From a virus (taxonomy: Duplodnaviria; Heunggongvirae; Uroviricota; Caudoviricetes), in IMG/VR virus record IMGVR_UViG_2872169409_000001: a stretch of DNA of 40,324 nucleotides; one strand, 5' to 3'. The position numbers were made by a program. Positions 25,301-28,300 of the stretch are shown in pieces (position 1 is the stretch's first letter; each line of letters begins with the position of its first letter).

Positions 25301-28300
25301 CGATTGAAAAGCAGATGGAAGCGGCAGCAAACAAAGGGGATGTAGAGACATACCGCAAGCTCAAGGCGCAACTGAATAAAGGAATTCGATAATGGCATTA
25401 AATGAAGGTCAACTGGTCACGTATGCTCTGGATGAAATCATCGAAACCGTCCAGAACCTGACGCCAATGGCGTCCAAAGTGACAAAATACACCCCTCCGG
25501 CAGAATCCATGCAACGTTCAAGCAACACCGTGTGGATGCCTGTTGAGCAGGAAGCGCCAACTCAGACTGGCTGGGATTTAACTGGCAACGCAACCGGGAT
25601 TCTGGAACTCTCCGTGAAATGCAACATGGGCGATCCGGATAACGATTTCTTCGAGCTTCGTGCAGATGACCTGCGTGATGAGCGTTCTTACCGTCGCCGC
25701 ATCCAGGCATCAGCCAAAAAACTGGCGAATAACATTGAGTCAGCAATTGCCAAACAGGCAACTGAAATGGGATCACTTGTTGTTCACGATACCCGCGCAA
25801 TTGGTCCATCTACTGGCCTGTCTGGCTGGGATTTTGTGTCTGATGCAGAGCGCCTGATGTTCTCCCGTGAGCTAAACCGCGATATGGGCATCAGTTACTT
25901 CCTGAACCCTGACGATTACCGCAAAGCAGGCCGCAACCTGGTAGATGGTGACATCTTTGGGCGCGTTCCTGAAGAAGCGTATCGTAACGGTACTATTCAG
26001 CGCCAGATTGCTGGCTTTGATGAAATTCTTCGCTCACCGAAACTTCCGGCAGTTACCAAGTCAACCGCTACTGGTGTAACTGTTTCTGGTGCGCAGAAGT
26101 TTAAGCCGCAGGCATACACCCTTGATACCGATGGTAACAAAGAGAACGTCGACAACCGTGTTGCAACGGTGACCGTATCCTCCACCACCGGATTTAAGCG
26201 CGGAGACAAAATCAGCTTCACTGGTGTGAAATTCCTGTCTCAGATGGCGAAGAACGTGCTGACTGATGATGCTACTTTCTCAATCACCCGTGTGATCGAT
26301 GGTACTCACATCGAAATCACGCCGAAGCCGATTGCGCTTGATGACTCTTCACTGACAAAAGAAGAGAAGGCTTACGCTAACGTAAACACCTCTCTTGCTG
26401 ATTCCACTCCGGTAAACGTTCTGAACGTGGCAACAACCACCGCCAACGTGTTCTGGGCTGATGACTCAATCCGCCTGCTGTCTCAGCCGATTCCGGTAAC
26501 CCATGAACTGTTTGCTGGCATGAAAACGTCTTCCTTCAGCATTCCTAGTATTGGTGTTAACGGCATCTTCGCAACGCAGGGTGATATCAATACTCTGTCT
26601 GGTAAGTGCCGTATTGCTGTGTGGTATTCAGCATGTGCTGTACGGCCAGAGGCAATTGGTGTTGGTCTGCCTAACCAGACCGCGTGATAACCAGAGGGAG
26701 CTTCGGCTCCCTTTTCTATTGGAGATACCAATGAGCGTAATGATTTTTCAGGCTGGCGGAGATACCAAAATCTGGGGGCGCAAGCTGAAAACGAAAACCG
26801 TTGATCCTGATGATGTAGCTGTGCACTTAGCAAATGGCTGGTATAAGCACCCTGACGATGTTCCTGATGATCCTCTTGTTGGTGATCAAATTGGGAATGT
26901 TGGCGGAGGTGAAACTTCCCCAGTTGATATGGGCGAAGTGTCCGACGGTTATCACACTTTTAACGAGCTTTACGCTCACCGAGTGCGACTCTTCTCATCG
27001 CTGATGCATGCTTACGCTGAGTTTTCGTGGTGGTCTCGCAAACACAGTGACGGTGAAGAGTGGGATGGCTGGATCATTGCTGGTATCACCACTCCAGAAG
27101 GCGAAATCACTTATCACCTACCTGTTGAAGAAATCGAGTTCCTTCCTGAAGGTACTGAGCTTGAGTTCGGGAAAGAGTGGGATGGTCATGAAGCAAATGA
27201 TGTTCTTGGACGACTCCTGAGTTTGCGTCCGGCTATTGCAGAGCCAGAGCCAGAGCCAGAGCCAGAAGAAAAACAGCGTAAAAAGCCTGGTCGAAAACCT
27301 AAGGCGGCAGCAGATGAACCTGACAACGAAGGGTGATTTAGTTCTTGCGGCATTACGTAAGCTCGGTGTGGCATCAAATGCCACGTTAACCGATGTCGAA
27401 CCTCAGTCCATGGAAGATGGTGTCAACGACCTTGAAATGATGATGGCTGAATGGCTTGGCGGTGATGCGTCACCAGGTATCAACGTTGGCTACATTTTCG
27501 CTGATGCAGATGTCGCTCCGGATCCGGGCGATGAGCACGGTTTATCAAATAACGCTATCAATGCCGTCATTTTTAACCTTGCCTGCCGCATTGCTCCAGA
27601 TTATGCGCTGGAAGCGTCTGCAAAACTTATAACCACTGCCAGATACGGGAAAGAGCGACTCGTCAAACTGTCTGCAATGGATAGGGCAAAAGCCGCTAAA
27701 TGTAAGTCCGGTTATCCAAACCGTATGCCTGTTGGTAGCGGTAACCAGTTGGCGAAGTGGAACGGTTGGAATTACTTCCACCGGAAGGAACCTTGCGATA
27801 ACGGGGGCGAATAAATGCCGATTCAGCAACTTCCGCTTATGAAAGGTGTCGGCAAAGACTTCCGAAACGCCGACTATATCGACTATCTGCCAGTGAATAT
27901 GCTGGCTACCCCCAAAGAAATACTCAACAGCAGCGGATATCTTCGCTCATTCCCGGGCATTGCCAAACGTTCTGATGTGAATGGTGTATCGCGCGGTGTC
28001 GAGTACAACATGGCGCAGAATGCTGTTTATCGCGTTTGCGGTGGCAAGTTGTATAAGGGAGAAAGCGAGGTCGGTGATGTTGCCGGGAGTGGTCGCGTAT
28101 CAATGGCGCATGGTCGAACATCTCAGGCGGTAGGCGTTAATGGTCAACTGGTCGAGTATCGCTATGATGGCACGGTTAAAACAGTCTCAAACTGGCCTAC
28201 AGACAGCGGATTCACACAGTATGAGTTAGGCTCAGTCCGCGATATTACGCGCTTGCGTGGGCGTTATGCGTGGTCAAAAGACGGTACTGATTCATGGTTT

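Follow-up and report, generated by a model that had tools for sequence, protein, structure and literature searches.

The gene between coat and gp4

The window analysed here is the whole of a 40,324-nucleotide (nt) stretch of viral DNA (Caudoviricetes; IMG/VR virus record IMGVR_UViG_2872169409_000001), and our subject is a gene in it that lies between the genes for the coat protein and for a homologue of gp4 of phage P22. The interval from 26688, the first intergenic base, to 27336 holds a hairpin and an open reading frame (ORF) of 201 residues, much as laid out in an original prediction made from the sequence alone: a GGGAGC-UUCG-GCUCCC hairpin with a U-run follows the coat gene, and the ORF has a ribosome-binding site of its own and overlaps the gp4 start by 23 nt. 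The acidic globular part, PEPEPEPE linker and basic tail that had been read from the ORF are likewise all present. The globular part contains a WDGH domain, and the main new result of this work is a hypothesis, built on domain fusions, in which this domain would be a counter-defence cassette.

The feature coordinates are collected in Table 1. The coat gene DNA is 97% identical to those of the Escherichia coli phages IME10, APC_JM3.2 and Dewey. The gp4 homologue begins with MNLTTKGD, similar to the start of P22 gp4, which we take to be MQIKTKGD. The G+C content of the ORF is 0.49, that of coat 0.51 and that of gp4 0.50, and a promoter scan detected no promoter-like site between the coat gene and the ORF (26688-26731). 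A purine-rich Shine-Dalgarno-like site stands at the matching place in the loci of relatives. An upstream TTG start at 26551, which would give 261 residues, was rejected: it lies inside the coat gene, 5' of the hairpin and the ribosome-binding site, and the homologues begin at the ATG.

Table 1. Features of the coat-gp4 region, in window positions.
Feature	Position	Strand	Basis or remark
Coat (major capsid) gene, upstream neighbour	25392..26687	+	431-residue ORF; stop TGA 26685-26687
Coat-end hairpin ('t coat'), terminator-like	26696..26715	+	fold energy, uniqueness, conservation, annotation in relatives
Shine-Dalgarno GGAG of the 201-residue ORF	26721..26724	+	seen in sequence; 6 nt before ATG 26731
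201-residue ORF, long allele of P22-like gene 6	26731..27336	+	PHROG 3769, tblastn, E. coli genomes
N-terminal small domain, residues 1-47, motif GW..HP	26731..26871	+	AlphaFold2, PHROG 1175, P22 orf69 homology
WDGH domain, residues 68-165, variable cassette	26932..27225	+	Pfam PF25311; pLDDT ~90
GAGCCA/CAGAGC hexanucleotide repeat encoding the (PE)n linker	27239..27266	+	Tandem Repeats Finder
Basic patch, residues 180-192, within disordered tail	27268..27306	+	net charge +5.8; pLDDT <50
Shine-Dalgarno AAGG of the gp4 homologue, within tail K-A codons	27301..27304	+	7-locus comparison
gp4 homologue (head-tail adaptor / packaged-DNA stabilisation protein)	27314..27814	+	ORF frame; RefSeq name under match

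The ORF matches PHROG 3769 with an E value of 6.7e-100, residues 1-199 covering profile positions 1-186 of 186. In a tblastn search of phage genomes, residues 1-165 aligned at ~62% identity to the gene that Salmonella phages have between coat and gp4, including L (Orf186), ST64T (orf-186), epsilon34 and g341c (gene 6), ST104, SE1, BTP1 and others; the phage L record gives the order terminator, Orf186, gp4. The ORF DNA was also searched for in complete E. coli genomes and found in 42, with at least 80% of its length aligned at 97-99% identity; there RefSeq names the product 'WDGH domain-containing protein' beside a 'packaged DNA stabilization gp4 family protein'. The coat-ORF-gp4 order recurs in a metagenome contig and in a Xenorhabdus prophage. 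On sequence and gene order, the ORF is identified as the E. coli version, in a long allele, of epsilon34 gene 6, L Orf186 and ST64T orf-186. It shares with the genes of L, ST64T, epsilon34 and g341c the position after the coat hairpin, the overlap with gp4, the N-terminal domain, the WDGH domain, a PE or acidic linker and a basic tail. The E. coli lineage differs from the Salmonella phage genes in a longer Gly-rich linker between the domains, in four PE units and in a tail reading KKPGRKPK, as against KKPGPKPK in L; the last tail residues of the two differ because the gp4 N-terminus differs.

P22-like phages were already known to carry the module of hairpin and gene 6, and RefSeq already includes the protein. 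According to the epsilon34 paper (PMC2629481), gene 6 homologues are of unequal length, with 'substantial internal deletions' in those of P22 and Scho1; the gene has no assigned role and is dispensable for P22 in the laboratory. The same paper reports that virion gels of epsilon34, which carries the long form, match those of P22 except for the Dec band, the tailspike and a small size shift of the ejection protein gp13. A literature search on orf186 and P22 orf69 returned nothing relevant beyond that paper. The ORF had no match in NCBIfam or PADLOC, and among PHROGs only families of unassigned function were matched. Sequence and profile searches of solved structures gave nothing credible, the sole match being RNA polymerase beta at E 0.65. 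Homology to a characterised structural or decoration protein would have refuted the original prediction; searches of Pfam, PHROGs and solved structures showed none, either to Dec or to any other such protein.

The profile searches and the structure prediction that had been proposed at the outset gave the anatomy that follows, with PHROG 3769 and Pfam WDGH as the matching families. An AlphaFold2 monomer prediction with 53 homologues yields a folded N-domain (residues 1-47) of a beta hairpin and a helix, with a predicted local distance difference test score (pLDDT) of ~85, and this part matches PHROG 1175 and is the one that stays constant in the protein of the slot. A Gly-rich linker, residues 48-64, is predicted to be disordered. 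It is followed by the WDGH domain, predicted as one helix, three strands and two helices, and then by a predicted disordered tail, residues 169-201. The match to the WDGH family (PF25311; E 2.3e-39, 134.1 bits against a cut-off of 27) spans all 97 profile positions (1-97 of 97). The family pattern, drawn from 150 representatives, is SDGYHTF.ELY.HR ... W.S..H.DG ... YH ... WDGH ... R, and the window protein has every position that is at least 90% conserved. About 30 positions, with five His, three Asp, two Arg and several aromatics among them, are conserved in at least 80% of these sequences. The domain is always acidic, with a net charge of -1 to -15 (median -7) in 129 representatives and of -13.7 in the window; the whole 201-residue protein has an isoelectric point of 4.6 and a net charge of about -21. 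No similar solved structure was found for the WDGH domain.

The slot between coat and gp4 is also filled in P22, where the original prediction had placed no gene. P22 orf69 occupies it (see also PMC2629481): its N-terminal domain is homologous to that of the ORF (BLASTP E 2e-8) and its basic tail, KPRKGRKPKA, aligns to the ORF tail (E 0.01), everything in between being missing. Short alleles of this kind are common among the prophages of enterobacteria. The N-domain profile detects hundreds of short forms of 47-84 residues in E. coli, Enterobacter, Serratia and Salmonella, and many E. coli prophage short alleles have 72-84. Like the window, P22 orf69 and the E. coli short alleles have the slot, the hairpin, the N-terminal domain, the basic tail and the gp4 overlap, but neither the linker between the domains nor any of the WDGH domain. 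The comparison is closest with phage Dewey, in which flanks 97-100% identical to those of the window enclose an 84-residue protein with an N-domain of a different subtype, (PE)5, a tail identical to that of the window and no WDGH. From the PE repeat onward the two DNAs are identical and before it they are unrelated, the divergence reaching exactly from the ribosome-binding site 3' of the hairpin to the first GAGCCA unit. Since the divergence stops at this repeat, the repeat is the right-hand mosaic junction.

Sf6 gene 6 (61 residues, noted as similar to HK620 hkbT) had been named in the original prediction as a gene at this position. It does lie in the same slot after 't coat', is likewise small and ends in KRGRKAAD, with a basic KRGRK like the window tail and the AAGG of the gp4 homologue within its K-A codons. 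It has no WDGH domain, and its N-terminal part showed no detectable homology to the N-domain (hhalign probability 0.6%); the original statement on Sf6 holds for position only. The slot was filled in every relative examined, the WDGH part alone being present in some and absent from others. Across the compared sequences, then, the slot always holds a small basic-tailed protein, in which the WDGH domain is an optional cassette.

The Dewey record (PQ850600) appears to be mis-annotated here. Its 84-residue gene 6 homologue (L001 3133-3387) lacks an annotation, an out-of-frame 'hypothetical protein' (L001 3060-3197) is annotated instead, and the start of the Ad3/gp4 gene is extended 5' through the GAGCCA repeat (L001 3272), giving 'MLQSQSQSQ...'. 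The window carries the same risk of a mistaken start, its gp4 frame being open from TTG 27236.

Distribution and fusion partners of WDGH

WDGH was detected in 3,596 clusters (50%-identity cluster representatives, all searched, E <= 0.001). The domain is spread across phages of Proteobacteria, Firmicutes, Actinobacteria and Cyanobacteria; the sequenced phages that have it include those of Listeria, Bacillus, Streptococcus, Lactococcus, Staphylococcus, Klebsiella, Erwinia, actinobacteria and cyanobacteria. WDGH is mostly encoded by phages or prophages and often forms a stand-alone protein of ~110-160 residues; in sequenced phages it is usually found among small accessory genes. The WDGH gene of Klebsiella phage SopranoGao sits in an early accessory block, and that of a staphylococcal phage adjoins a dUTPase gene. 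In Bacillus phage vB_BanS_Nate (L006 3848-5048), the WDGH gene gp134 overlaps the start of gp135, a gene of the NADAR family, whose proteins act on ADP-ribose adducts. This neighbour fits the theme of ADP-ribose and Thoeris that runs through the WDGH fusion partners. A stand-alone WDGH gene of Streptococcus phage Javan318 (L007 3923-4294) lies between the genes for a portal-sized 'minor capsid protein' and for head morphogenesis; there too, in an unrelated siphovirus of a Gram-positive host, WDGH is inside the head gene cluster.

Fusion partners were surveyed with Pfam in the 150 best representatives of the 3,596 clusters. Sequestin (PF21825) was the most frequent, standing before or after WDGH in 6 of the 150, followed by the Lar restriction alleviation domain in 3. 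An Acb2/Tad1 hairpin, a Tad2-like domain, a YodL-like domain, DUF551 and a zinc ribbon were found in 1 each, the counts for the Acb2/Tad1 hairpin and the Tad2-like domain being set-level tallies over the 150. No structural or replication domain was among the Pfam partners of these representatives. Pfam scans of 20 proteins picked by length or Cys motifs gave only WDGH and one sub-threshold zinc-ribbon match, and a motif-guided scan gave the examples of fusion to Lar, YodL, DUF551 and Sequestin. Tad2-like, WDGH and Sequestin domains stand in this order in one protein of a Serratia prophage (P0097; L010 7001-7798, Logan ERR3566460). On one side its gene has a lysis cassette (holins, M15 peptidase, DUF2570), and on the other, putative terminase genes followed by a portal gene of the P22 type. 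This locus is a second accessory slot with WDGH.

Sequestin is a sponge for the Thoeris signal 3'cADPR and was discovered through its fusion to Tad2 and Acb4 (Tal et al. 2025, bioRxiv 10.1101/2025.07.12.664507); an Acb4-Sequestin fusion was confirmed in a Pseudomonas phage in a 2026 preprint (10.64898/2026.06.04.730250). The supplementary tables of the Sequestin paper contain no WDGH motifs. WDGH occurs in multi-domain fusions similar to those of the fused sponges Tad2, Acb4 and Sequestin, in the orders Tad2-like/WDGH/Sequestin, WDGH-Sequestin and Sequestin-WDGH. It differs from them in having no sequence or fold similarity to the Tad2, Acb4 or Sequestin families and, in the window, in being embedded in a late-operon protein and not encoded by a short early gene. 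Acb5 was considered and rejected, as its key residues and host distribution differ.

Many enterobacterial WDGH proteins also carry a recurrent module of ~85 residues that has no Pfam match and the motif 'VYQYAA..N..RG.V..DG'. It is usually C-terminal to WDGH and sometimes N-terminal, 18 fragments fall in one cluster, and its carriers include P0052, P0065, P0075, P0099, P0105, P0125 and P0126. It may be a further accessory domain.

Hairpin, PE repeat and basic tail

The hairpin lies 9 bases past the coat stop and is made of GGGAGC (26696-26701), a TTCG loop (26702-26705) and GCTCCC (26706-26711), then TTTTCTATT. Five of the 6 base pairs in its core stem are G-C, and the U-run UUUUCUAUU, reading UUUU(CUAUU), follows immediately 3'. 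Judged by eye, this combination of a GC-rich stem, short loop and U-run has the sequence characteristics of an intrinsic (Rho-independent) terminator. A simple terminator pattern scan of the window did not list the hairpin, likely because the stem, extendable to 9 pairs via AGA/UUU (maximal stem AGAGGGAGC/GCUCCCUUU), pairs with the first residues of the T-run. The RNA folds at -19.2 kcal/mol (z = -2.75 against dinucleotide shuffles), and the 20-mer has one copy in the window and none in 100 shuffles.

Hairpin and T-run are kept in all seven P22-like loci compared (the window, L, P22, Sf6, Sf101, the metagenome contig and the Xenorhabdus prophage) while their flanks diverge. Two of the six pairs are altered on both sides among these loci, one as A-U/G-C/U-A and the other as G-C/A-U/G-U. 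Conservation with compensatory changes indicates a selected RNA or DNA structure. The hairpin itself is not new. Its counterparts are annotated as a terminator or stem-loop in the records of Sf6, L and P22, the last giving a stem-loop before orf69 'similar in location to stem-loops in phage HK97 and phage lambda', and such annotations in P22-like phages go back about twenty years. Judging by lambdoid late operons in general, it would be read through by polymerase that the late antiterminator has modified. The hairpin would probably set or stabilise the 3' end of the coat mRNA, as a partial terminator or stabiliser, and coat would then exceed the downstream products.

The hexanucleotide repeat that encodes the linker has a period of 6, 4.7 copies and a 100% match in Tandem Repeats Finder. 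Orthologues contain from 1 to more than 8 PE units, and the E. coli copies of the ORF range from 594 to 612 nt in 6-nt steps. Some E. coli copies (for example NZ_CM169495 and NZ_CP115370) are annotated as two pieces, either both as WDGH or as WDGH and a hypothetical protein. The length steps and the split annotations together suggest slippage at the PE repeat with occasional disruption of the gene. Two short matches to the region were found in unrelated phages: a 37-nt match to the PE-repeat region (window 27239-27275) in a Microviridae VP2-like gene, and a 31-nt exact match to the hairpin and ribosome-binding site (window 26695-26725) in an unannotated stretch of Acinetobacter phage vB_AbaM_3098. 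Both are probably convergent or low-complexity.

The tail was compared across ~48 slot-type orthologues. In most, the basic patch reads KKPG[RP]KPK; some have KRGRK[PS]K or KKRGRK[PA]K, two (P0034 and P0045) have KKRGRP[TA]K with a true AT-hook core, and a few lack the Gly or have no basic patch at that position. The codons vary synonymously across lineages (CCT/CCA, GGT/GGA/GGC, CGA/CGC/CGT/CGG), which indicates that selection acts on the protein to keep its basic Gly-Arg character. The end of the tail serves a second purpose: the codons AAG-G(C/T)N (K-A or K-V) contain the AAGG of the gp4 Shine-Dalgarno, 9-10 nt before the gp4 ATG at all seven loci, and the last seven ORF residues are the gp4 start region read in another frame. 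Of the AT-hook resemblance noted in the original prediction, the conserved basic Gly-Arg patch stands. The tail shares with the eukaryotic AT-hook (PF02178) a short disordered patch rich in Pro, Gly, Arg and Lys with acidic flanks, and rare orthologues come close with KKRGRP(T/A)K. The window sequence K-P-G-R-K-P-K, in contrast, has no R-G-R-P core, RKKPGRKPK gave no match to the AT_hook profile even at E <= 10, and the RGRP orthologue P0045 scored 14.4 bits, below the cut-off of 17.4. By motif and profile, the tail falls outside the AT-hook family. It might add a weak non-specific contact with nucleic acid or with a partner; for nucleic acid this is possible although the protein as a whole is strongly acidic.

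Two further observations concern the surrounding genes. The scaffold gene of the window (24481-25392) directly abuts coat, ending at 25392 where coat starts, and in Dewey an HNH endonuclease gene on the opposite strand (L001 1204-1725) lies between the scaffold and coat genes. Downstream, window 29131-30081 is a gene 3' of the gp10 homologue whose counterpart in Dewey is annotated 'tail needle knob'; the start of its product resembles what we take to be the start of the P22 tail needle gp26, and its C-terminal part is much longer.

Possible roles of the WDGH cassette

The argument for counter-defence runs by analogy: Sequestin was found by fusion to Tad2 and Acb4, WDGH is similarly fused, and WDGH is therefore a candidate counter-defence domain. 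Gene 6 probably has no promoter of its own and would be transcribed with the late operon by read-through of the hairpin. Its WDGH domain would act on a nucleotide-derived immune signal, by binding or cleaving it, or would weaken host immunity in some other way. The protein would be made in bulk just as the capsid proteins build up, these being frequent triggers of such systems. The best overall explanation of the locus is a conserved post-coat module, made of the hairpin and a long gene 6, with WDGH acting in counter-defence, and we place it a little below an even chance. That the cassette serves counter-defence and is expressed together with the capsid genes is a tentative proposal, at most as probable as that overall account and perhaps less so. 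The more specific version, in which WDGH would be an uncharacterised counter-defence family, a sponge or hydrolase for a nucleotide-derived immune signal carried as a swappable late-operon cassette after coat, is possible and rather more doubtful. Such a signal is possibly of the ADP-ribose type, given the Tad2, Sequestin and Tad1-like partners and the NADAR neighbour.

Several considerations weigh against a counter-defence role. A recognisable counter-defence partner is present in only ~12 of the 150 representatives (~8%), and the other extensions of WDGH fall in 131 unrelated clusters without an assigned function. Fusion with promiscuous domains is circumstantial support. A literature search returned no paper that mentions WDGH or PF25311 and no link to any defence system. 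Late expression is unusual among known signal sponges. The N-domain and tail exist without WDGH, which counter-defence leaves unexplained, and the uniform acidity of WDGH is roughly as compatible with a DNA mimic as with a sponge.

An acidic domain could indeed imitate DNA, or in some other way block restriction or other DNA-targeting defences, and both the charge of WDGH throughout the family and its fusion to Lar in three representatives are consistent with this. Lar, however, is outnumbered by the Sequestin, Tad2-like and Acb2/Tad1 partners, the ~30 conserved positions with their His, Asp and Arg residues look more like a binding or catalytic site than a charge mimic, and structure-database searches linked WDGH to none of the solved mimics, Ocr and ArdA included. 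We consider anti-restriction of this kind unlikely. No more probable in our judgement is a role as a DNA-binding helper in head completion or packaging, in which the basic tail would hold the protein on the phage DNA close to the portal and thereby account for the position between coat and gp4. The selection of the basic Gly-Arg patch at the protein level, the canonical KKRGRP core of two orthologues (one with a weak Pfam AT_hook match), the overlap with the gp4 start in every locus checked and the retention of the tail in forms without WDGH would all suit such a helper. Against it, the window tail has neither R-G-R-P nor an AT_hook match, many orthologues replace the Arg with Pro (KKPGPKPK) or lose the Gly, the net charge of the whole protein is about -21, and the terminal K-A codons are accounted for by the gp4 Shine-Dalgarno; moreover, the P22 homologue is non-essential and no matching band was seen in epsilon34 virions (PMC2629481).

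The original prediction had called the gene a moron. In the sense of Hendrix and colleagues, a moron is a transcription unit in its own right that has been inserted into the late operon of a phage, and here it would lie between coat and gp4 to the benefit of the lysogen. The presence or absence of the WDGH middle among otherwise 97%-identical E. coli phages and the dispensability of the gene in P22 agree with that label, which otherwise did not hold up: the promoter scan was negative, the hairpin is upstream of the ORF and not downstream and is assigned in the records of relatives to the end of the coat gene, no terminator follows the ORF, which overlaps gp4, the G+C content equals that of the flanks, and the slot was never empty in the relatives examined. 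We regard a classic moron as very improbable. Still less credence goes to a virion decoration or minor structural protein. The gene does lie within the head gene cluster, and RefSeq labels the analogous Sf101 gene 'virion structural protein', which is an annotation and not an experiment. Profile and structure searches, on the other hand, connect the protein to no structural family, Dec is the only extra band on the epsilon34 virion gel (PMC2629481), and in unrelated phages WDGH is found in regions of early or accessory genes.

As a sequence feature, the locus is ordinary: the hairpin and the gene have long been annotated, and the exact protein is in RefSeq. What WDGH does concerns a domain with at least 3,596 protein clusters at 50% identity, spread across phages of four bacterial groups. 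Its pattern of fusion to Sequestin, Tad2-like, Acb2/Tad1 and Lar domains provides a concrete hypothesis, of the sort of reasoning that recently uncovered Sequestin. If the counter-defence reading is true, WDGH would be one more counter-defence family, and it would explain why close P22-like phages differ at this single spot in an otherwise conserved head gene cluster.

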